Shown: piece by piece, positions 3,046-16,779 of the stretch
Position numbering within the stretch: position 1 is the stretch's first letter
How the letters are laid out: each line of letters begins with the position of its first letter
Source of the DNA: a virus
Taxonomy: Duplodnaviria > Heunggongvirae > Uroviricota > Caudoviricetes
Strand: one strand, 5' to 3'
Virus record (IMG/VR): IMGVR_UViG_3300032334_002267
Span: 137,310 to 154,247 of that record
Length of the DNA stretch: 16,938 nt
The notes under the pieces: generated by a model
What the model saw: the letters and a program-made list of their open reading frames with translations, nothing else
Told to the model about the DNA's origin: nothing
Database searches by the model: none
Made by a program: the position numbers and the translations under genes

Positions 3046-3273
3046 ATGAGAAATCAAAATCGTCCGACCAATTACGCTAAGGTTAGCTATGGTCAAAAAT
3101 TGAGCATCGCAAATGCAGGTCGCCGTCGTGGGGATGTTTCAGATGTTGCTCGTAAAACTGGGTTTGCAATCAGCACAGTGAGCTACGTGTTGTCTGGTCG
3201 TTTCAAAAACGAGCGTATTGTAAATGCAGCTTACAACATTAGCCGCGGTCGTAAGGCTGCAGTTAAAGCTTAA
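3046..3273 (+). CDS. small basic helix-turn-helix DNA-binding protein (LacI/XRE-like HTH), 75 aa
   Basis: DVARKTGFAISTVSYVLSG matches the LacI-type HTH pattern (DVA--AGVS--TVS-VL-G). Monocistronic with its own promoter and terminator. Confidence 0.75.
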   Translation: MRNQNRPTNYAKVSYGQKLSIANAGRRRGDVSDVARKTGFAISTVSYVLSGRFKNERIVNAAYNISRGRKAAVKA

Positions 3274-6454: not shown

Positions 6455-6898
6455 ATGGCAACACGTTCAAGAATCGCAATCGAAAACCAAGACGGAACAG
6501 TTAATTCAATTTACTGTCACTGGGATGGTTATCCATCTAACAATGGAGAAATTTTATTCAACAATTACAAAACCCAAGAGAAGGTGGAATCCTTAATAGA
6601 ACTTGGGAGCATCTCGTCCCTTAGACCACAGGTTGAAATTCCTGAAGGAGTGCAACACACTTTTGAAAATCAGAATGATGACATCACAGTAGCTTATCAC
6701 CGAGACCGAGGTGAAGATCTAAGCATCTCATCACATAAGAATGCTGAAGATTTCATGAGAAGCGATGTTGAGGAGTATGGCTATCTTTTCACAGCAGCAG
6801 GAGAATGGTTATTTGTTAACGGACACGTTAATGAATCAAAGAGGGAGTTTCAAACTCTAAGATCTGTGTTAAGTAAAGATGCGACTGTGAGTTATTAA
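6455..6898 (+). CDS. hypothetical phage protein, 147 aa (MATRSRI...YCHWDGYP family)
   Basis: The MxTRSxI and YCHWDGYP motifs recur in phage and mobile-element proteins of unknown function. Confidence 0.9.
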   Translation: MATRSRIAIENQDGTVNSIYCHWDGYPSNNGEILFNNYKTQEKVESLIELGSISSLRPQVEIPEGVQHTFENQNDDITVAYHRDRGEDLSISSHKNAEDFMRSDVEEYGYLFTAAGEWLFVNGHVNESKREFQTLRSVLSKDATVSY

Positions 6899-7039: not shown

Positions 7040-7249
7040 ATGTGGAATCCATCATTTCAATCATTCGGTATAGTTAGAGTAGAAACTGACCGAGTTAGAG
7101 TTTTCAAAGATCAGTACAATTCAGTTACGGTCCATGTCGGTCAAAGGGTAACACAAGCCCACTGGGACGGCGGAGTACTCAACGTTTATTTAGCCAACGG
7201 TTCCGTGAGACGCTACATCGACTACATAAATTTCATTACGATCTATTAA
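7040..7249 (+). CDS. hypothetical protein, 69 aa, beta-rich
   Basis: ATG after P6 with an AAAACAAAC leader. Confidence 0.85.
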   Translation: MWNPSFQSFGIVRVETDRVRVFKDQYNSVTVHVGQRVTQAHWDGGVLNVYLANGSVRRYIDYINFITIY

Positions 7250-9538: not shown

Positions 9539-9568
9539 AAGGTCCCTTAATTGGGACCTTTTTTGTGG
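9539..9568 (+). terminator. intrinsic terminator with TTTTGTGG tail
   Basis: AAGGTCCC-TTAATT-GGGACCTT-TTTT-GTGG. Confidence 0.85.
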
Positions 9569-9579
9569 CCCCCGTAAAG

Positions 9580-9613
9580 ATAGTATAGTACTAAGATACC
9601 ACGCTCGCGAGAG
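9580..9613 (+). repeat. 34-nt conserved motif B, copy 1 of 3
   Basis: ATAGTATAGTACTAAGATACCACGCTCGCGAGAG. 28 of 34 positions are invariant across the copies at 9580, 12575 and 16378. Confidence 0.9.
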
Positions 9614-9620
9614 TGCGCGT

Positions 9621-9780
9621 AAACCGTTGGATGACCCTCGCATGTAAGAGAATCAACAAGAATAATAATAGCTAAGCTGTAGTTCAGATAAGCTGAAACC
9701 GTTGGATGGCCCTCGCATGTAAGAGAATCAACAAGAATAATAATAGCTAAGCTGTAGTTCAGATAAGCGGAAACCGTTGG
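9621..9780 (+). repeat. 75-nt tandem duplication (2 units plus 10 nt), each unit starting with a half-site of the 21-bp palindrome
   Basis: Units start at 9621, 9696 and 9771, each with AAACCGTTGG. Units 1 and 2 differ at 2 positions. Confidence 0.95.
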
Positions 9781-9872
9781 TTGAACATCATCAATCAAAG
9801 GTGTAAAGATGACATTTACAGGCTTTGGAGGAATGGTAACTTTAGATTAATTAAGTACATCCGCAATAATAG

Positions 9873-9900
9873 AAGAGTCCGTGAAAACGGACTTTTTTGT
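9873..9900 (+). terminator. intrinsic terminator with GAAA tetraloop
   Basis: AGTCCGT-GAAA-ACGGACT followed by TTTTTGT. No obvious gene lies upstream of it. Confidence 0.75.
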
Positions 9901-9918: not shown

Positions 9919-9939
9919 GGAACTGTTGTCAACGGTTCC
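9919..9939. promoter_or_regulatory. 21-bp palindrome (motif A), copy 1
   Basis: GGAACTGTTG-T-CAACGGTTCC. Confidence 0.8.
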
Positions 9940-10013
9940 GCGCTGGGAAGATGTTGGGTTTTCGGTTTGACATCTTTGGATTTATAAGGCTATAGAAATT
10001 AATCAGTTAGATA

Positions 10014-10045
10014 TTTTTTTATACTGATTCTTTTGATTACTTTTG
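10014..10045 (+). promoter_or_regulatory. Bacteroidota promoter P9
   Basis: TTTTTTTAT-N15-TACTTTTG. Confidence 0.85.
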
Positions 10046-10067
10046 CATCCAATAAAACAAACCACAT

Positions 10068-10223
10068 ATGTACGGATTAAATTGCTCTTATTACACCAAA
10101 ACATTTCCCACTATTAACCAGCTTATTGATGATGTCATAGATTCAGGCATGGATCCAAACTATGAGATCACTTATAACGGTAAAGTAACCGGAGAACTAA
10201 TTATTGACCTTATAACTTTTTAA
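10068..10223 (+). CDS. small hypothetical protein, 51 aa
   Basis: MYGLNCSYYTKTFPTINQLIDDVIDSGMDPNYEITYNGKVTGELIIDLITF*. Follows P9 and ends 2 nt before the next ATG. Not in the track. Confidence 0.85.
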   Translation: MYGLNCSYYTKTFPTINQLIDDVIDSGMDPNYEITYNGKVTGELIIDLITF

Positions 10224-10225
10224 TC

Positions 10226-10414
10226 ATGACCCCAGAAAAAATAAAAGAAGCAGCATCTAAACTCACGGTATCTAAATTCATACTTTGGTCTGAGGATATG
10301 AAACTAAACCCTGTTATAACCAACCGTGATGAAGTATTCAATGTTAACCTTGATGAAGTCCACTTAGATGTGGGAGGAATATCACTAATATTCATTAACG
10401 GAAAAATTTCCTAA
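10226..10414 (+). CDS. hypothetical protein, 62 aa
   Basis: ATG 2 nt after the upstream stop. Confidence 0.75.
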   Translation: MTPEKIKEAASKLTVSKFILWSEDMKLNPVITNRDEVFNVNLDEVHLDVGGISLIFINGKIS

Positions 10415-10418
10415 TAAA

Positions 10419-10450
10419 TTTTTACATCTGGAAATAAATTCTTAATTTTG
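10419..10450 (+). promoter_or_regulatory. Bacteroidota promoter P10
   Basis: TTTTTACAT-N15-TAATTTTG. Confidence 0.75.
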
Positions 10451-10480
10451 CACTATTATTAATCAAAAAAAAACACAACT

Positions 10481-10861
10481 ATGGGCTTAGACATGTATGC
10501 AAACCACACCAAATTTAAACCTGAATCACAAGTTGATTTTCAAGTTCCCGAAGAATTAGAGAATGAAGAATTCCAGTACTGGCGTAAGCATCCAAACCTT
10601 CATGGATGGATGGAAGATCTTTATCGTAAAAAAGGCGGTTCTGATGAATTCTTCAACTGTGTAAACGTTCAGTTAACAGAAGAGGATTTAAACAATCTGG
10701 AAAAAACCATTAAAGATAATGAGCTACCCGGAACTATGGGTTTCTTTTTCGGGGAATCCTCAGGGGATGAGGAAGAGGTAAATGAAGATCTTGCTTTCAT
10801 TGAAAATGCCAAAAGACTTATCCAAGAAGGCAATACGGTTTATTACAGTTCTTGGTGGTAA
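10481..10861 (+). CDS. hypothetical phage protein, 126 aa (MGLDMY...YWRKHPNLHGWM...FFFG...YxSWW family)
   Basis: Characteristic motifs of a recurrent phage family of unknown function. Monocistronic unit. Confidence 0.9.
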   Translation: MGLDMYANHTKFKPESQVDFQVPEELENEEFQYWRKHPNLHGWMEDLYRKKGGSDEFFNCVNVQLTEEDLNNLEKTIKDNELPGTMGFFFGESSGDEEEVNEDLAFIENAKRLIQEGNTVYYSSWW

Positions 10862-10883
10862 AAAGCTAACCATTAAAAACATC

Positions 10884-10922
10884 AAAGAAGACTTTTCGGG
10901 GTCTTCTTTTTTTTTGTGGGGT
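10884..10922 (+). terminator. intrinsic terminator with TTTTGTGGGGT tail
   Basis: AAAGAAGACTT-TTCG-GGGTCTTCTTT, T9, then GTGGGGT. Confidence 0.85.
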
Positions 10923-10960
10923 CTTTCTTCAACTCCGTCCTGATATCAGAGCCATCTTAG

Positions 10961-10981
10961 GGAACCGCTGCCAACGGTTTC
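10961..10981. promoter_or_regulatory. 21-bp palindrome (motif A), copy 2
   Basis: GGAACCGCTG-C-CAACGGTTTC. Confidence 0.8.
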
Positions 10982-11040
10982 GCGGATGATGCAGCTGATC
11001 TGCAGCTGAAATTTTTCCCTGATTATAAGATATAGTAATC

Positions 11041-11373
11041 ATGGAAGAGAGAAGAAGAATACTTGATATTTCAAAAGAGGTAGAATATCCAAAAGAATTC
11101 TACAGCTTCGCCAACGGTGTCGACATCTCGAATCCAGAAATCAATAGATGGATCAGAGAATGTTTTGAGACCCTCCGACTTCAGATTCTTGAAGACCCTA
11201 CAAAATCACATCATAGTTATATGGGTTCTGGTAACGCTATAATTATCATATGGGCATATCCTCAATCTGATGGTACGTTTGAAGTTGAGTTCACTGTTTC
11301 TAAAAACTATTCAACATACAGCATCTTCGGTTTCGACCCTCTTGTTGACGAAGGGTTCGAAGAAATTAAATAA
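11041..11373 (+). CDS. hypothetical protein, 110 aa
   Basis: ATG start. No TAnnTTTG promoter upstream. Confidence 0.8.
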   Translation: MEERRRILDISKEVEYPKEFYSFANGVDISNPEINRWIRECFETLRLQILEDPTKSHHSYMGSGNAIIIIWAYPQSDGTFEVEFTVSKNYSTYSIFGFDPLVDEGFEEIK

Positions 11374-11390
11374 AAAAAGTTCCCAAAATA

Positions 11391-11422
11391 TTTTTTTATC
11401 TTGTATAGATTTATTATCTTTG
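11391..11422 (+). promoter_or_regulatory. Bacteroidota promoter P11
   Basis: TTTTTTTAT-N15-TATCTTTG. Confidence 0.85.
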
Positions 11423-11451
11423 GGATGTCGAAGCTTTTAAAAACAAATAAG

Positions 11452-11592
11452 ATGAATCAAATAATATTAATTATAATTTTTTTTATTACAATAGCGTATC
11501 TAATTTATTTAGGAAATAAAAAAAATCCAATGTCAATATCAGCAGCAGAGGATATAAAGAAAATGAATGAAGATTTAAAAAACTTTGAATAA
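11452..11592 (+). CDS. small membrane peptide, 46 aa (start moved from 11401 to ATG 11452)
   Basis: MNQIILIIIFFITIAYLIYLG forms a single hydrophobic helix. The track start lies inside P11. Confidence 0.7.
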   Translation: MNQIILIIIFFITIAYLIYLGNKKNPMSISAAEDIKKMNEDLKNFE

Positions 11593-11622
11593 ACCTTAAT
11601 TTATAATCTAAACACACAAACT

Positions 11623-12096
11623 ATGGGCTGGTGGTCAACAGATATTTTAGGAGGAGATACTCCCCTAGATTTCAAATCAGAATTTTACAGTAAATTAAAA
11701 CTTGATCAATTCAAGGACAAAGGTGACAAGGTTAAAACCGCCTTTGAGAAATACCAAAAGAAGTTCGTGAGTGATGGGGAGATGGATAACATCCTAAACA
11801 AATGGGGGTGCGGAGAACCTGATGAATCATTCTATCGAGATCATAAGAGTATAGGATACCAGGTCCTAGCTGTTATCCTAATGGAGAATGGATGTCAGAT
11901 ATCTTACGATTTGAAGGACATTATGCTAAATTGGATTCCCACGGACAATTGGGCTTCAGAAGATGACGAGAGAAAGACAACCATTCAAAATCTCGTAAAG
12001 ACTTTAACCGCCTATGACGGCAGTGTTCCGTTTAAAATTAAATCAAAAGGACTTTTCGAAGTTTGGGCAGAAAAAATACAAAACAAGAATATATGA
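11623..12096 (+). CDS. hypothetical protein, 157 aa (MGWWS..ILGGDTPLD N-terminus)
   Basis: ATG with an AAACACACAAACT leader. The N-terminus loosely recalls DUF4259-type MGAWG...D-A-D; weak. Confidence 0.85.
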   Translation: MGWWSTDILGGDTPLDFKSEFYSKLKLDQFKDKGDKVKTAFEKYQKKFVSDGEMDNILNKWGCGEPDESFYRDHKSIGYQVLAVILMENGCQISYDLKDIMLNWIPTDNWASEDDERKTTIQNLVKTLTAYDGSVPFKIKSKGLFEVWAEKIQNKNI

Positions 12097-12395
12097 AATT
12101 AAAAACAGCTTACTCCGAATACGACGTTATCCTTTCCTGGGGAAAGTATGGTAACGGACGCAAAGCATTAGAAATTATTGACTCTGAAGATGGATTCCCT
12201 GTTATGGTTGCCACAGTCAACATTCCCGAGGTTCCGTTGACCGAGAACGAAGTTATCATCAAGAACTATTCAGAGAACGAGGGAGTGCTGGAATTCCTAC
12301 AGGAGAATGGAATTGTAGGACCGGTTAAGAGAGAGGTGGGAACAGGATTCGTTTCTTTTCCTGTTGTTGACGTTTACACGTCAAGCGATGTTTAA
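12093..12395 (+). CDS. DUF4313-like protein, 100 aa (start moved from 12063 to ATG 12093)
   Basis: ATGA overlap with the upstream stop. Pattern Y-NG--AL-I ... ATVNI ... IKNYSEN ... L-ENGI ... GF--FP recalls DUF4313. Confidence 0.6.
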   Translation: MKLKTAYSEYDVILSWGKYGNGRKALEIIDSEDGFPVMVATVNIPEVPLTENEVIIKNYSENEGVLEFLQENGIVGPVKREVGTGFVSFPVVDVYTSSDV

Positions 12396-12416
12396 TGAAT
12401 AAAGATTTTAAATAGG

Positions 12417-12560
12417 ATGAAAGATTATATAGCGTATAAAATAGAAACGTACATAAAATACAATAATTATAATTTCTACAAGATTAGAAAAAAATTAAAA
12501 AGTTTAGGTTTATTTTTAGATAAGCCTGCACTTATTAAAAGGCTAAGAGGTTTAAAATAA
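12417..12560 (+). CDS. small basic hypothetical protein, 47 aa, very low GC
   Basis: MKDYIAYKIETYIKYNNYNFYKIRKKLKSLGLFLDKPALIKRLRGLK*. Fills the gap after 12395. Not in the track. Confidence 0.6.
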   Translation: MKDYIAYKIETYIKYNNYNFYKIRKKLKSLGLFLDKPALIKRLRGLK

Positions 12561-12574
12561 CTTCATCCCAAAAC

Positions 12575-12608
12575 ATAGTATGGTGGTAAGATACTACGCC
12601 CGCGAGAG
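12575..12608 (+). repeat. 34-nt conserved motif B, copy 2 of 3
   Basis: ATAGTATGGTGGTAAGATACTACGCCCGCGAGAG. The 3' part can fold as CCGC-GAGA-GCGG. Confidence 0.9.
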
Positions 12609-12658
12609 CGGACACGTTAAGATTTAAGAAAAATCATAAAGATTTAAAAAAGATTCAT

Positions 12659-12666
12659 TACCTTTG
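12659..12666 (+). promoter_or_regulatory. Bacteroidota -7 element P12 (lacks the -33 T-tract)
   Basis: TACCTTTG followed by the typical TCCCAACCAAAAAACAAACAC leader. Confidence 0.7.
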
Positions 12667-12687
12667 TCCCAACCAAAAAACAAACAC

Positions 12688-13065
12688 ATGAAAAGTATCA
12701 AAGTTAGGTTCAATCTAGGAAGGGGCAAGAATTATCTAAAGTGGAAGATCGAGTATCCAGATAAGAGAGTGGAGTACTTAGACCCAAATGCGATCCAGCT
12801 AACCATGCATGGATGCAAGCTAAAGAACAATCCCAAAACAGCAGAGAGAATATATCAGGGCCAAAGCAAAACGGTTTGCGCTTGGGTTCTCTGCAACCGA
12901 ATTGAGCTAACCCGCGGTTCCCTCCACTGCATCCAGAGTCCAGATTCCTGGGTTTACTACAATCCTAAGAATTTCCCCAACTGGGTTTACCAAGGTCATA
13001 ACGCCGACGGTTTCGAGTTCGACCGAATCCAGAGTTTAGGTTCTAAACTTTATGTTATAAGCTAA
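12688..13065 (+). CDS. hypothetical phage protein, 125 aa (KVRFNLGRGKNY-KWK family; start moved from 12664 to ATG 12688)
   Basis: The track start overlaps the -7 box. ATG 12688 has the canonical leader. Confidence 0.85.
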   Translation: MKSIKVRFNLGRGKNYLKWKIEYPDKRVEYLDPNAIQLTMHGCKLKNNPKTAERIYQGQSKTVCAWVLCNRIELTRGSLHCIQSPDSWVYYNPKNFPNWVYQGHNADGFEFDRIQSLGSKLYVIS

Positions 13066-13096
13066 TAAATCTTTAACGAAAAAAATAGGAAAAAGA

Positions 13097-13128
13097 TTTC
13101 TGTAATTGGAAAAGATGTATTATATTTG
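13097..13128 (+). promoter_or_regulatory. Bacteroidota promoter P13
   Basis: ATTT at the conserved distance, then TATATTTG (13121-13128). Confidence 0.75.
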
Positions 13129-13148
13129 CATAACAAAAAACATTCTAT

Positions 13149-13631
13149 ATGGTACACACAACCCCTAAAAAAAGATGGAGCAAATTGGAAGACAGCTACA
13201 TCATCCTTTCTCTTCAGAAAGGTTTAACAACTTCCGAAATCGCAAAAACCCTTAATCGCACATCCGGATCAGTTTCAACCCGAAAATGGGCATTGGGCTT
13301 AGAGGGTAGGTTCAAAAGTTCTGAAAGAGGAACCAAAATACAATCTACTAAAAGAATTGGTTTGGTTCAGGAGCCTAACCCGGAGTTTGTAGAAACATTC
13401 AAACTTGAAAGTGGAATTCCAATTCCTACTAGAAAAGAGAAAAACCCGGAGGCAAAAGAAAGAGCAAGATTTATCTTTAATCAAATGAAACCCGGTCAAT
13501 CATTTGTAGTTCCAAAATCTGATTTGTACTTTGTAAAAGCAGTTTACAAAGCAGAGTTTGAAGCTTACAAAATCAAAATTACACCAACCTTACCAAATGG
13601 AAAATTTTTCAGGATTTTTAGAGTAGCATAA
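13149..13631 (+). CDS. putative two-domain DNA-binding protein, 160 aa, with an N-terminal Myb/SANT- or GcrA-like HTH
   Basis: KRWSKLEDSYI ... GLTTSEIAKTLNRTSGSVSTR matches W(S/T)xxED ... xxxEIAxxLxRTxxSV. The C-terminal part has LESGIPIP ... MKPGQSFVVP. Confidence 0.7.
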   Translation: MVHTTPKKRWSKLEDSYIILSLQKGLTTSEIAKTLNRTSGSVSTRKWALGLEGRFKSSERGTKIQSTKRIGLVQEPNPEFVETFKLESGIPIPTRKEKNPEAKERARFIFNQMKPGQSFVVPKSDLYFVKAVYKAEFEAYKIKITPTLPNGKFFRIFRVA

Positions 13632-13649
13632 TAGGTGTTTGTTTTGGTT

Positions 13650-13687
13650 AAGGGACTCTTAAAAAAGAGTCCCTTTTTTTGTGGGGT
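13650..13687 (+). terminator. intrinsic terminator with TTTTGTGGGGT tail
   Basis: AAGGGACTCTT-AAAA-AAGAGTCCCTT, T-run, then GTGGGGT. Confidence 0.9.
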
Positions 13688-13723
13688 CAAATCTGGAAAA
13701 ACCCAAAACCCTGTTACAGTCTC

Positions 13724-13744
13724 GGAACTGCTGTCAACGGTTCC
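13724..13744. promoter_or_regulatory. 21-bp palindrome (motif A), copy 3
   Basis: GGAACTGCTG-T-CAACGGTTCC. Confidence 0.8.
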
Positions 13745-13757
13745 GGCACTTTTGGTG

Positions 13758-13787
13758 TTTCAGTAGTTTCCAGTAGTTTTCAGTAGT
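13758..13787 (+). repeat. 10-nt tandem repeat TT(T/C)CAGTAGT x3
   Basis: TTTCAGTAGT TTCCAGTAGT TTTCAGTAGT. Confidence 0.9.
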
Positions 13788-13808
13788 AGATAAATATTGT
13801 CTGAAATA

Positions 13809-13840
13809 TTTTTTTATTCAGAAACTATTTATTACTTTTG
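13809..13840 (+). promoter_or_regulatory. Bacteroidota promoter P14
   Basis: TTTTTTTAT-N15-TACTTTTG. Confidence 0.85.
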
Positions 13841-13861
13841 TCCCAACAAAAATAAACACAC

Positions 13862-14191
13862 ATGCAAAAGAAAATCACTTACACAGCAAAAGGTAACGTC
13901 CTTGGAAATTTTTGGGGAGGTGGAAGAGGAGCTTACCCAACCGTAGTTATCACTGGAGATTCAATTGAAGAGATTCAAGAAAAAGCAGAGAAGGCTTTAA
14001 AAGACGGAAGTCTAGATTCCGGTATGGGATACGAAAGCTTGATAGGAGCAGTTCTTGATGTTGAAGTAAAGACACAAATTACTGTTGACGATAAACCTTT
14101 CTTCAACAGGGAATGGGAACAAATCTTAGTTGGAGAACTGGATGAGATGGATTACGAGTTTTTAACAGGTTGCAATTTCGAATTAAACTAA
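13862..14191 (+). CDS. hypothetical phage protein, 109 aa (GNFWGGG / DGSLDSGMG motifs)
   Basis: Follows P14 with the canonical leader. Confidence 0.9.
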   Translation: MQKKITYTAKGNVLGNFWGGGRGAYPTVVITGDSIEEIQEKAEKALKDGSLDSGMGYESLIGAVLDVEVKTQITVDDKPFFNREWEQILVGELDEMDYEFLTGCNFELN

Positions 14192-14196
14192 ACAAT

Positions 14197-14496
14197 ATGA
14201 AAAGAGGAGACCAATATTTAGGCAGAGAGATTCTTCACACTGAGGAGTTTCCGGCCGCGGGAACATTTCAAGCATTCTATAATGCTGAGGCCCGTTTAAA
14301 AGATTTAGGATACACAACAGGTTCTATGGCTCGAACGGAGCCAATAGGATTTGCTGATGCAGACAAATACGATTATGTGGCTAAGTGGTATAAGATAAGC
14401 CCGGAGGAGAAGGCTCTTTTAGATGGAGTTATGGTAAGTAAAGATTTCAGAGAAGGTGGAGTTACAATAGTATTCTTTACACCTCCAAAATATTAA
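14197..14496 (+). CDS. hypothetical phage protein, 99 aa (GTF-A ... GSM ... PIG ... YVAKW ... LDG ... FREG; start moved from 14170 to ATG 14197)
   Basis: ATG 5 nt after the upstream stop, with an AAACAAT leader. Confidence 0.85.
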   Translation: MKRGDQYLGREILHTEEFPAAGTFQAFYNAEARLKDLGYTTGSMARTEPIGFADADKYDYVAKWYKISPEEKALLDGVMVSKDFREGGVTIVFFTPPKY

Positions 14497-14514
14497 ATTT
14501 GGGTTTTGGGTTGG

Positions 14515-14545
14515 AAGCAGACTTCGGTCTGCTTTTTTTGTGGGT
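14515..14545 (+). terminator. intrinsic terminator with UUCG loop and TTTTGTGGGT tail
   Basis: AAGCAGAC-TTCG-GTCTGCTT, T-run, then GTGGGT. Confidence 0.9.
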
Positions 14546-14582
14546 AAAACCAAAGCTTATTGCAGCTATGCTAGCAGGAGGA

Positions 14583-14603
14583 GAAACCGTTGTCAACGGT
14601 TCC
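14583..14603. promoter_or_regulatory. 21-bp palindrome (motif A), copy 4
   Basis: GAAACCGTTG-T-CAACGGTTCC. Confidence 0.8.
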
Positions 14604-14667
14604 GCGATTGCATTCTCGATCAGGGAAAAGAAGGTTGGAAATATTTTTTTGAAATCTCTCAAATTTA

Positions 14668-14699
14668 TTTTTTTATCTGAAGAAGTTTAATTACATTTG
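14668..14699 (+). promoter_or_regulatory. Bacteroidota promoter P15
   Basis: TTTTTTTAT-N15-TACATTTG. Confidence 0.85.
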
Positions 14700-14719
14700 C
14701 TCCAACAAAAACACACATC

Positions 14720-15019
14720 ATGAAAGTTATTCTAAACGAGGGTATTAAACCTTCATCATCAAACGGAGGACGTTTTCAGGACATTATCATTGTCAATGAA
14801 AAGAAAGAGAAATTCAGAATTTATATTCTGTCAGAATCTCACGAATCCCAATCCTACGCCCGTCTATACAAATGGACCAACGAAAAAGGCTGGGAGGTAA
14901 TAACGTCAAAGAACCCTAAGAGGGATTACAAGATTGATATCTCATATCAGTCAAGTTATCCTCAGAGCGCATTCAATCGTATTATTTCAGACCTAACCGC
15001 AATCGCTGAACATTTTTAA
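14720..15019 (+). CDS. hypothetical protein, 99 aa
   Basis: Follows P15 with the canonical leader. Confidence 0.85.
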   Translation: MKVILNEGIKPSSSNGGRFQDIIIVNEKKEKFRIYILSESHESQSYARLYKWTNEKGWEVITSKNPKRDYKIDISYQSSYPQSAFNRIISDLTAIAEHF

Positions 15020-15022
15020 ACT

Positions 15023-15063
15023 AAAAAAAATCTGTAATTTATTTTTTATTACAGATTTTTTTT
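15023..15063. repeat. perfect 16-bp inverted repeat (terminator-like) overlapping promoter P16
   Basis: AAAAAAAATCTGTAAT-TTATTTTTT-ATTACAGATTTTTTTT. Confidence 0.95.
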
Positions 15064-15073
15064 CTTATCTTTG
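15042..15073 (+). promoter_or_regulatory. Bacteroidota promoter P16
   Basis: T-run starts 24 nt upstream of TATCTTTG (15066-15073). Confidence 0.8.
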
Positions 15074-15095
15074 CACCAACAAAACCTATATAATT

Positions 15096-15308
15096 ATGAC
15101 AAACGAACAATCAGCAATCTTCAGAAAGGTACTAGATACCAATTGGGAAGTTAAAGAGTTAACAGAATCCAGCAGATGGATAGAAGCAATAGAAAAGGCA
15201 AAAGAGCTTGATAGGCTAAAATCCGAACTCAAAGAATCGATGGGTGAATATGAGTACAACAAGTTCATGGACACTGGACGTAAAATGTTTTCCCCTGCCG
15301 AAGACTAA
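15096..15308 (+). CDS. hypothetical protein, 70 aa, helical
   Basis: Follows P16. Confidence 0.85.
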   Translation: MTNEQSAIFRKVLDTNWEVKELTESSRWIEAIEKAKELDRLKSELKESMGEYEYNKFMDTGRKMFSPAED

Positions 15309-15359
15309 CACCTATAGTATTCTTTAATCAAAATTTCACACACTAAAATTGCAATCACC

Positions 15360-15701
15360 ATGGCAAAGAAACAAAAAAAACTAAACAGAAAAATCCAAGA
15401 GATCTTTGGATCCGTCATCTCTTCAGAATCCTCAGTGTTCTCAAAGGAAGATGTGCTAAGACTTTTAGAAGAGGTAAACGAAGCTGCGGAAAAGAAAACT
15501 TCAATATCTCAGGATCAATTGGATGACCTATCGGAAAGGATATCAACTGCAATTTCATATGTGGATGGCTTAGATCTTGTTGATGATTACTGTCTTGAGA
15601 TGGATGGAAATTGTGTTGAGATACGCAGTCTTGATCTTGACGGTGACCAGATTAAAGAAATTATAGATGAAGCTATCTCAGAATGGGAAGATGAAATTTA
15701 A
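15360..15701 (+). CDS. acidic hypothetical protein, 113 aa
   Basis: ATG start, followed by a terminator. A degenerate promoter may lie at 15320-15351 (TTCTTTAAT-N15-TAAAATTG). Confidence 0.85.
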   Translation: MAKKQKKLNRKIQEIFGSVISSESSVFSKEDVLRLLEEVNEAAEKKTSISQDQLDDLSERISTAISYVDGLDLVDDYCLEMDGNCVEIRSLDLDGDQIKEIIDEAISEWEDEI

Positions 15702-15722
15702 GAGTTAGTGTGTTTGTTTGTT

Positions 15723-15759
15723 AAAGATCCCAACTTCGGTTGGGGTTTTTTTTGTGGGT
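15723..15759 (+). terminator. intrinsic terminator with UUCG loop and TTTTGTGGGT tail
   Basis: GATCCCAAC-TTCG-GTTGGGGTT, T-run, then GTGGGT. Confidence 0.9.
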
Positions 15760-15802
15760 TGAGTTCGTGACGTGCTCACTTGAAACGTCATATGACGTCT
15801 GC

Positions 15803-15823
15803 GGAACCGATGCCAACGGTTCC
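15803..15823. promoter_or_regulatory. 21-bp palindrome (motif A), copy 5
   Basis: GGAACCGATG-C-CAACGGTTCC. Confidence 0.8.
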
Positions 15824-15881
15824 TCTCCAGCTGAGCAAACCAGCTGAGCGAAATTCGATTCTGAAAATATCCAGCTTGGAA

Positions 15882-15913
15882 TTTTTTTTATTGAAAGGTA
15901 ATCATTACTTTTG
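15882..15913 (+). promoter_or_regulatory. Bacteroidota promoter P17
   Basis: T8 run starts 24 nt upstream of TACTTTTG (15906-15913). Confidence 0.85.
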
Positions 15914-16377: not shown

Positions 16378-16411
16378 ATAGTATGGTAGTAAGATACCAC
16401 GCACGCGAGCG
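16378..16411 (+). repeat. 34-nt conserved motif B, copy 3 of 3
   Basis: ATAGTATGGTAGTAAGATACCACGCACGCGAGCG, ending 5 nt upstream of the tRNA. Confidence 0.9.
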
Positions 16412-16416
16412 ATTAA

Positions 16417-16490
16417 GGTCAGGTGGCGCAATTGGTTAGCGCAAGATGCTTATACCATCGAGGCTACGGGTTCGAGTCCCGTCCTGACTA
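16417..16490 (+). tRNA. tRNA-Ile, anticodon UAU (TAT at 16451-16453)
   Basis: Full cloverleaf: acceptor GGTCAGG/CCTGACT, D stem GCGC/GCGC, anticodon stem AGATG/CATCG with loop CTTATAC, T arm ACGGG-TTCGAGT-CCCGT, discriminator A. CCA is not encoded. Confidence 0.92.
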
Positions 16491-16510
16491 CAAAAACGAA
16501 TTAAAATAAA

Positions 16511-16759
16511 ATGGGAAAAGCAATCAGAAATGTATTTAAAACTGATACATTAACTTTAACAGAATGTACTGATGGATATTATCTTTGGGATAAAGTCGCT
16601 GGTTTTAATATAGCAATACACGCTAAAAGTGAACAACAGGCTCTTATTGATGGACTAGATTATTACCAAAGGTATCATTCTAAATTAAAAAAAGAATACA
16701 AAGAACTGAACGACAAAGTAGAAAGCTTCCTTTGTCAATTTAATAGAGAAGAAGATTAA
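16511..16759 (+). CDS. hypothetical protein, 82 aa, low GC
   Basis: ATG 20 nt after the tRNA. C-terminal coiled-coil-like segment. Confidence 0.8.
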   Translation: MGKAIRNVFKTDTLTLTECTDGYYLWDKVAGFNIAIHAKSEQQALIDGLDYYQRYHSKLKKEYKELNDKVESFLCQFNREED

Positions 16760-16779
16760 AAAATAATTCACCCAAATAA

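Follow-up and report, generated by a model that had tools for sequence, protein, structure and literature searches.

The last 17 kb of the virus contig IMGVR_UViG_3300032334_002267 (IMG/VR; 154,247 bp; CheckV completeness 55%) make up the window analyzed here, that is, the whole stretch of 16,938 nucleotides from position 137,310 to position 154,247 of the record. Within it a 21-bp pseudo-palindrome recurs between genes, shortly behind transcription terminators, and this element is our subject. The contig comes from a giant phage of Bacteroidota-type bacteria, with Flavobacteriia, Sphingobacteriia or Chitinophagia of fresh water as probable hosts, and the block that carries the element consists of small early genes. 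All real genes of the window lie on the + strand. A promoter consensus, T7AT-N15-TAnnTTTG, occurs 21 times on the + strand and never on the − strand of the whole contig, and 11 of these 21 copies, more than half, fall within the last 17 kb. TAnnTTTG is the −7 box used by the primary sigma factor of the Bacteroidota, so that the promoters are of host type and presumably early. A scan for sigma-70-type promoters, the wrong promoter type for this host, showed no enrichment (34 found, 42.5 expected). The consensus promoters of the window are the following.

1488, 2982, 4675, 5288, 8365, 10014, 11391, 13809, 14668, 15883 and 16780, + strand: promoters of the consensus T7AT-N15-TAnnTTTG

The palindrome was searched for with the pattern GGAACCGTTGNCAACGGTTCC, allowing three mismatches, and 200 dinucleotide-preserving shuffles served as control. 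Five copies were found, each with one or two mismatches and each exactly where an earlier sequence-only reading of this DNA had placed it, and the shuffles gave 0 matches in 200. The rest of the contig holds no further copy, its next best match having at least five mismatches.

9919–9939, + strand: palindrome copy 1 (GGAACTGTTGTCAACGGTTCC), 20 nt past the T-run of terminator 9876–9899 and 98 nt before the −7 box
10961–10981, + strand: palindrome copy 2 (GGAACCGCTGCCAACGGTTTC), 45 nt past the T-run of terminator 10884–10921
13724–13744, + strand: palindrome copy 3 (GGAACTGCTGTCAACGGTTCC), 43 nt past the T-run and 88 nt before the −7 box
14583–14603, + strand: palindrome copy 4 (GAAACCGTTGTCAACGGTTCC), 43 nt past the T-run
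15803–15823, + strand: palindrome copy 5 (GGAACCGATGCCAACGGTTCC), 49 nt past the T-run and 82 nt before the −7 box

The description of a near-invariant right half facing a variable left half was borne out: the right half reads CAACGGTT(C/T)C throughout, and every other change belongs to the left half (two C6>T, two T8>C, one T8>A and one G2>A). All five copies are intergenic, as had been said, with an intrinsic terminator upstream and a gene start downstream of each, and the small open reading frames (ORFs) that overlap them are unsupported. Copy 2 has no consensus promoter downstream, and the next ATG lies at 11041. In L243, a strain-level relative, these five copies are joined by at least three others past the end of the present contig. 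An isolated exact right half, CAACGGTTCC, was also seen at 7195–7204 inside the conserved ORF 7040–7249; it has no left half, and about 0.3 chance occurrences of a 10-mer of this type are expected in the contig by our own estimate.

Two further features had been linked to the palindrome, and both are present.

2940–2953, + strand: collapsed variant GAAACCGCGGGTTC, the outer arms minus the central 7 nt
9617–9784, + strand: 75-bp tandem repeat (2.2 copies, 93% matches) carrying three AAACCGTTG half-sites

The collapsed variant lies 47 nt past the T-run, with its GTGGGG tail, of terminator 2862–2893, which is the slot of the full copies, and the orthologous module of the relative G001, upstream of a homologous helix-turn-helix (HTH) gene, has a full-length reversed motif. 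On the strength of this shared slot and of the full motif in the orthologous module, we take GAAACCGCGGGTTC to be a decayed member of the family. The half-sites at 9621, 9696 and 9771 exist as described but are successive units of one tandem duplication, and they therefore count as a single event rather than as three.

In this phage the palindrome is part of a larger arrangement. A stop codon is followed by a hairpin with a GC stem, by a run of six to nine T with a GTGG(G) tail, by an unconserved spacer of 20–49 nt and then by the palindrome, on the 3′ side of which lie 60–75 nt with short module-specific repeats and, in four of the five modules, a promoter. Terminators were called as hairpins of −6 kcal/mol or better that end at a run of at least six T, and promoters by the consensus.

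2862–2893, + strand: intrinsic terminator with T6-GTGGGG tail, upstream of the collapsed variant
9876–9899, + strand: intrinsic terminator upstream of copy 1
10884–10921, + strand: intrinsic terminator with T9-GTGGGG tail, upstream of copy 2
13650–13686, + strand: intrinsic terminator with T7-GTGGGG tail, upstream of copy 3
14515–14544, + strand: intrinsic terminator with T7-GTGGG tail, upstream of copy 4
15729–15758, + strand: intrinsic terminator with T8-GTGGG tail, upstream of copy 5
10014–10045, + strand: phage early promoter (T7AT-N15-TAnnTTTG) downstream of copy 1
13809–13840, + strand: phage early promoter downstream of copy 3
14668–14699, + strand: phage early promoter downstream of copy 4
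15883–15913, + strand: phage early promoter downstream of copy 5

A "variable palindrome" in the spacer proved to be an inconsistent feature, as spacer folds barely beat those of shuffles (mean z −0.56, with one third below −1). The repeats between palindrome and promoter were seen at 13757–13787, 15828–15850, 10991–11009 and 9949–9983; they comprise GTTTCAGTA three times, CCAGCTGAGC twice, GCAGCTGA twice and an inverted AAGATGT pair. The paired CAGCTG recurs in the orthologous module of G001, and repeats of the CATCTG or CAGATG type occur in relatives.

A search with the 377-amino-acid protein encoded next to the array led to freshwater megaphages of 320–430 kb (59–68% identity), which share the promoter type of the present phage and carry a related element. 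The core common to the family is ACCG-NNG-N-CAACG(G), which we searched for as CCGNNGNCAACG, and the element takes one of three forms according to lineage.

This phage: GGAACCG-NNG-N-CAACGGTTCC
G001: (a)AACCG-NNG-T-CAACGTTCC(c), each copy lacking one G
G002, G003, G004 and three further contigs: (a)CACCG-(T/C)CG-N-CAACGGTG

In complete genomes the core is confined to one block, with 14 of 15 occurrences within 23 kb in G001, eight of nine within 10 kb in G002 and all seven within 35 kb in G004, and a reversed-pattern control gave 0–1 matches per strand. The family is found in at least eight contigs, all of this megaphage clade; other IMG/VR matches are single ones, mostly in high-GC phages, and the pattern in the form of the present phage matched in IMG/VR one unrelated coding sequence (in seven contigs) and one other site. 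The 19-mer has eight matches in 596 Gb of prokaryote genomes, two of them single ones in Flavobacterium and Pedobacter, which by our own estimate is about the number expected by chance. These searches mark the site as a phage element specific to this clade rather than a widespread host operator, and the operator of a host transcription factor was rejected on the same ground.

Across the approximately 49 copies seen, ACCG, G10 and C12-A13-A14-C-G are kept in all, positions 8–9, the mirror of A13-A14, vary freely, and the outer arms are lineage-specific, changing together on both sides (A3:T19 here, C:G in the G002 type). An invariant CAA at 12–14 opposite variable positions does not agree with the simple, symmetric site for a dimer that had been supposed, and the element reads as a pseudo-palindrome rather than as a symmetric operator. 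It points forward in this phage, G001 and G002, and is reversed relative to the terminator and the genes in five of the seven G004 copies. When orthologous modules of this phage and G001 are compared, they align solely at the T-run with its GTGG tail, at the motif and at the promoter, so that these islands are likely under selection; for the motif, the comparison points to purifying selection. One region of G001, at about 74.1–77.7 kb, has ten motif copies in both orientations within 3.5 kb with few convincing ORFs, short tandem repeats interleaved with them and a G-rich end with a fourfold AATGTCTACA repeat; it may be a regulatory hub.

The position of the element is tied to the terminator. 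In the five phages compared, 31 of 40 motif centers lie 27–59 nt behind a terminator, most of them at 42–55 nt, and in the present genome a terminator precedes all five copies as well as the collapsed one. Promoters that directly follow a stop codon, with no terminator in between, never have the site. The GTGG tail is itself enriched, being found in 15 of 24 motif-coupled terminators versus 7 of about 90 others. Since the element keeps phase with the terminator rather than with the promoter, a job at the end of the transcription unit is the most likely one. The layout moreover reaches beyond this sequence. In the more distant phage L238, terminators with a GTG(G) tail are followed at 40–52 nt by an unrelated GC-rich pseudo-palindrome, GnGrGGG-N2-CCCyCnC, so that the same slot is filled by an unrelated sequence and the layout is more general than the palindrome studied here. 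This L238 element, GCGAGGGAGCCCTCAC with its variants, was seen at 9669–19850 of a 233-kb ENA contig.

The sequence-only reading had placed the palindrome 85–100 nt upstream of a −7 box and concluded that it suits an activator, looping or nucleoid-organizing site. For four of the five copies the distance holds (82–98 nt from the end of the palindrome to TAnnTTTG), and it fails for copy 10961; clade-wide, the tie is to the upstream terminator. We consider it unlikely that the early promoter is controlled, perhaps through looping between copies, by an activator or repressor dimer sitting about 110 bp ahead of the start site, in the manner for which phi29 p4, which acts at upstream sites, is the model. 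The short direct repeats between site and promoter do look like a regulatory region. However, no more than 14 of the 40 copies in the clade have a promoter within 250 nt downstream, the distances spread over 40–139 nt with no fixed value, 26 copies have none, and copy 10961 is joined by many G001 and G004 copies that lack such a promoter.

The copies that do not fold bear on whether the element is read as duplex DNA or as a hairpin. Most copies of the present type and of the G002 type fold better than shuffles, with z between −2 and −4.6 (an exception is copy 10961, z about −0.2). In contrast, G001-type copies do not fold (z 0.75 and −0.01 versus shuffles), yet at least 14 of them keep an invariant GTCAACGTTCC. 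One L243 copy combines a left arm of the present type with a right arm of the G002 type and is unable to pair. Together with the inversion of most G004 copies, these findings favor a protein site on double-stranded DNA over an RNA hairpin, as the sequence-only reading had proposed, although its argument from non-compensated changes was weak, since most of these fall at positions 8–9, where a hairpin would have its loop. The pattern would fit a duplex site that is read asymmetrically, either through a strong and a weak half-site or by a two-domain monomer of the kind known from stoperator repressors.

It appears quite improbable to us that the conserved unit is a hairpin in read-through RNA or in extruded or single-stranded DNA, with a stem of 5–7 bp and the 7-nt loop NNGNCAA, serving a loop factor or acting as a second stop, a stabilizer or a processing site. 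The folds of most copies and the joint change of the outer arms between lineages would be expected of it, but such co-variation is expected equally for a dimer site, and the L243 copy has outer arms that are not complementary. Moreover, the element comes later than the T-run and lacks a U-tract, being followed by GCG, GGC or TCT, and a predominantly inverted orientation, as in G004, does not suit an RNA structure.

The reading we favor, with a probability of about 0.5, is that the palindrome is a boundary- or roadblock-type docking site for a protein, placed inside terminator/promoter cassettes that resemble the promoter-early stem-loop (PeSL) cassettes of other phages. The site would be recognized on double-stranded DNA by a sequence-specific protein, probably encoded by the phage. 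It would belong to a composite boundary module of a hyperplastic early-gene block, running from the terminator hairpin through the T-run with its GTGG tail, a spacer of about 25–45 nt, the palindrome and the short repeats to what is usually a host-type early promoter, and it would serve as a marker or insulator where a transcription unit ends. Once bound, the protein may halt or capture RNA polymerase that has run past the terminator, a fail-safe roadblock that would protect the cassette downstream, and its presence on the sites could also turn the block as a whole off or on.

Several points weigh against this reading. We infer both that the spacer behind the terminator is not transcribed and that a bound protein would act as a roadblock. 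The distance from terminator to site is loose, at 27–59 nt, with no fixed phase. A deviation that is uniform within a lineage, such as the G missing from every G001 copy, could be explained by homogenization of copies instead of protein specificity. The asymmetry of the element, with an invariant G..CAA opposite variable positions, is also what a hairpin with a 5–7-bp stem and a 7-nt loop would lead one to expect, positions 8–9 varying as a loop would, and G-T wobbles on the + strand account for three of the four stem changes in this phage. Finally, no binding protein was identified, and both HTH candidates of the window, those encoded at 3046 and 13149, fail to co-occur with the motif.

These two proteins had been suggested for binding experiments by the sequence-only reading, and neither tracks the motif across relatives. 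The protein encoded at 3046 has a LacI-type HTH, and it was rejected because its homologue is present in G001 only, though G002–G004 carry the motif. The N-terminal domain of the 13149 protein is GcrA-/Myb-like, with profile matches to c-Myb (E 1e-8) and GcrA (E 2e-6) and a model that superposes on the GcrA DNA-binding domain with a root-mean-square deviation of 1.0 Å over 44 residues (32% identity), and its C-terminal domain is TusA-like. A single-sequence fold was too poor and was not used; a PDB sequence search gave one unrelated, marginal match and no repressor. The invariant CAACGG resembles YAACGG, which we take to be the Myb recognition element, and we treat this as a lead only. The candidate was rejected because full-length homologues occur in the motif-free phages L238, L241 and L242, and because G001–G004 have the N-terminal domain only, in other proteins 22–44 kb away. 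The 13149–13631 family has at least 18 relatives (37–93% identity), and several lineages encode it a few kb downstream of the gene for the DUF932-like protein. A 250-kb, 92%-complete contig (G006) encodes a relative of the N-terminal domain and has no core motif, although the counterpart of the motif-bearing block could not be found in it. As to other genes of the window, a 147-amino-acid gene (6455–6898) is kept in all lineages, and a PDB sequence search with it gave no informative match.

The cassettes of the block are mobile. Upstream of the 377-amino-acid gene, gene order is syntenic with that of the relatives, and downstream of the gene it is scrambled relative to G001. Strain-level changes were followed in contigs from four other samples, where insertions and replacements end at a terminator, a motif, a promoter or a transfer RNA (tRNA). 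In other samples a 941-nt insertion sits inside terminator 10884–10921; in another, the 85 nt from the 3′ edge of copy 4 to the −7 box are swapped for 80 unrelated letters while the motif is kept; and in other samples the gene after the tRNA is replaced. We find it very improbable, however, that the conserved 13–21 bp are mainly a homology anchor, a crossover point at which homologous recombination swaps early cassettes, as has been proposed for PeSLs. The scrambled order and the replacement that begins exactly at the edge of copy 4 are what it predicts, but the other breakpoints lie in terminators, promoters or the tRNA, and terminator and promoter already offer longer homology. The pseudo-palindromic form, the slot behind terminators and the unrelated palindrome in the same slot of L238 would be left unexplained, and no site-specific recombinase was found: five genomes gave no matches to tyrosine or serine recombinases (PF00589, PF00239) and no integrase, and a Y1 transposase (PF01797) was found in G003 only, the lineage with the fewest copies, which makes site-specific recombination unlikely.

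Centromere-like or origin-linked sites for a partition or initiator protein are suggested by the clustering of palindromes in one block and by the half-site-bearing, iteron-like 75-bp repeat next to copy 1, but we dismiss them as exceedingly improbable, given that ParB_N (PF02195) has no match in five genomes (a control matched in 10 of 14 genomes), that the 377-amino-acid neighbor resembles DUF932 proteins, is no known initiator and was ruled out as one for lack of a Rep signature, that the half-sites stem from one duplication and that the sites are individually tied to terminators.

Other elements were seen in the same block. A second conserved intergenic element, cATAGTATGGTnGTAAGATACnACGCnCGCGAG, occurs at 9582–9626, 12577–12615 and 16380–16412 and also about 346 nt before the start of the window. 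Its first copy in the window precedes the 75-bp repeat, the third ends 5 nt before a tRNA-Ile (anticodon TAT, 16417–16491) within the early block, and similar strings are found in intergenic regions of relatives; it may represent a further class of promoters that serves stable RNAs, or else a second kind of protein site. An Rfam scan at the gathering threshold matched the tRNA alone. In two other samples the 286 nt after the tRNA-Ile (16491–16778, with the ORF 16511–16759) are swapped for 257 other letters. The ORF-poor unit of about 310 nt at 9541–9899, between terminators 9541–9568 and 9876–9899, consists of the second element and the 75-bp repeat, and the assemblies of other samples break there; it is a candidate non-coding RNA. 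A 162-bp segment, 11428–11589, is missing from the contigs of all four other samples, and a similar segment lies about 3 kb past the end of the window in two of them; in the present contig it is either a duplication or an assembly chimera.

The docking-site reading can be extended, tentatively, to a general proposal. Giant phages of Bacteroidota may place a lineage-specific docking site about 25–50 bp behind the terminators of their early cassettes, where a bound phage protein would act both as roadblock or insulator and as a common switch of the block, a bacterial-virus counterpart of eukaryotic terminator and boundary factors of the Reb1 or TTF-I type, with site and reader co-evolving fast (ACCGTTG-N-CAACGGT here, GnGrGGG-N2-CCCyCnC elsewhere). 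What is observed is a short site kept in the slot behind terminators across a clade of uncultured 320–430-kb phages, with an unrelated palindrome in that slot in a more distant phage. To our knowledge, there is hardly any documented case, in bacteria or their viruses, of a protein that assists termination or insulation at an intrinsic terminator. Should a protein indeed bind the site, roadblock-assisted termination could be tested in a simple system taken from nature, and one could approach the question of how dozens of small early cassettes are kept independent, or are turned off jointly, in giant phages. The genetics of Bacteroidota would gain a compact, portable insulator part.

Among known systems, several palindromic sites differ from the element in their parts. 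LexA boxes of the SOS response have a consensus with GAAC-N4-GTTC-type spacing; here 11 nt separate the GAAC and GTTC arms, which are replaced by CAC and GTG in other lineages. The profile searches described above set the element apart from ParB–parS and from attC, dif, lox-like or REP/RAYT sites, in agreement with the sequence-only reading, which had recognized neither LexA, parS nor dif. It is unlike an intrinsic terminator or a conserved RNA hairpin in that its stem is not kept in the G001 type and no U-tract follows. The phi29 protein p4 is a small dimer that binds inverted repeats tens of bp upstream of promoters and switches between early and late transcription. Inverted repeats at such distances from phage promoters are found here too; while p4 sites hold fixed promoter positions, the phase here is to the terminator. 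Similar in layout are the sites of yeast Reb1 and mouse TTF-I, which are roadblock (fail-safe) terminators or boundary sites behind terminators and ahead of the next promoter. The likeness, protein sites shortly behind a terminator, before the next promoter and repeated between tandem units, is one of layout only, and the domain of life and the polymerase differ; a roadblock effect in the phage would be conjectural.

The stoperators of L5, one of the cluster A mycobacteriophages, offer another parallel. They are read in the duplex by a phage protein, the gp71-type repressor, which halts elongating RNA polymerase, and an asymmetric site can be read by one protein that sets two DNA-binding domains into successive major grooves (PMC9283540). 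The two systems share many copies of one short intergenic site at the ends of gene units. They differ in that stoperators are spread over whole genomes of temperate phages, whereas the present element is held in one block of 10–35 kb (the last 7 kb of this contig); that stoperators strictly follow the direction of transcription, whereas five of seven G004 copies are reversed; and that stoperators come with a two-domain immunity repressor, whereas here we find no integrase and no recognizable repressor.

The cassettes themselves resemble the PeSL cassettes of T4-type phages, which consist of a stem-loop and a promoter only (Arbiol et al. 2010, PMC2839356; Comeau et al. 2014, PMC4122927); a term search of the latter paper turned up neither a palindrome nor a binding site. 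Both are composites of a terminator and a host-type early promoter between small ORFan genes in the hyperplastic region of a T4-related phage, with gene order shuffled between relatives and strain-level replacements that end at conserved pieces. In the present phage, however, terminator and promoter share an intergenic region but lie 130–170 bp apart, and further conserved elements separate them, the pseudo-palindrome phased to the terminator being a third element and the module-specific repeats coming after it. Our comparison refines the picture of cassette shuffling in T4-related phages; there is, in our judgment, about an even chance that these are PeSL-type cassettes to which an element working like a stoperator or roadblock site has been added.

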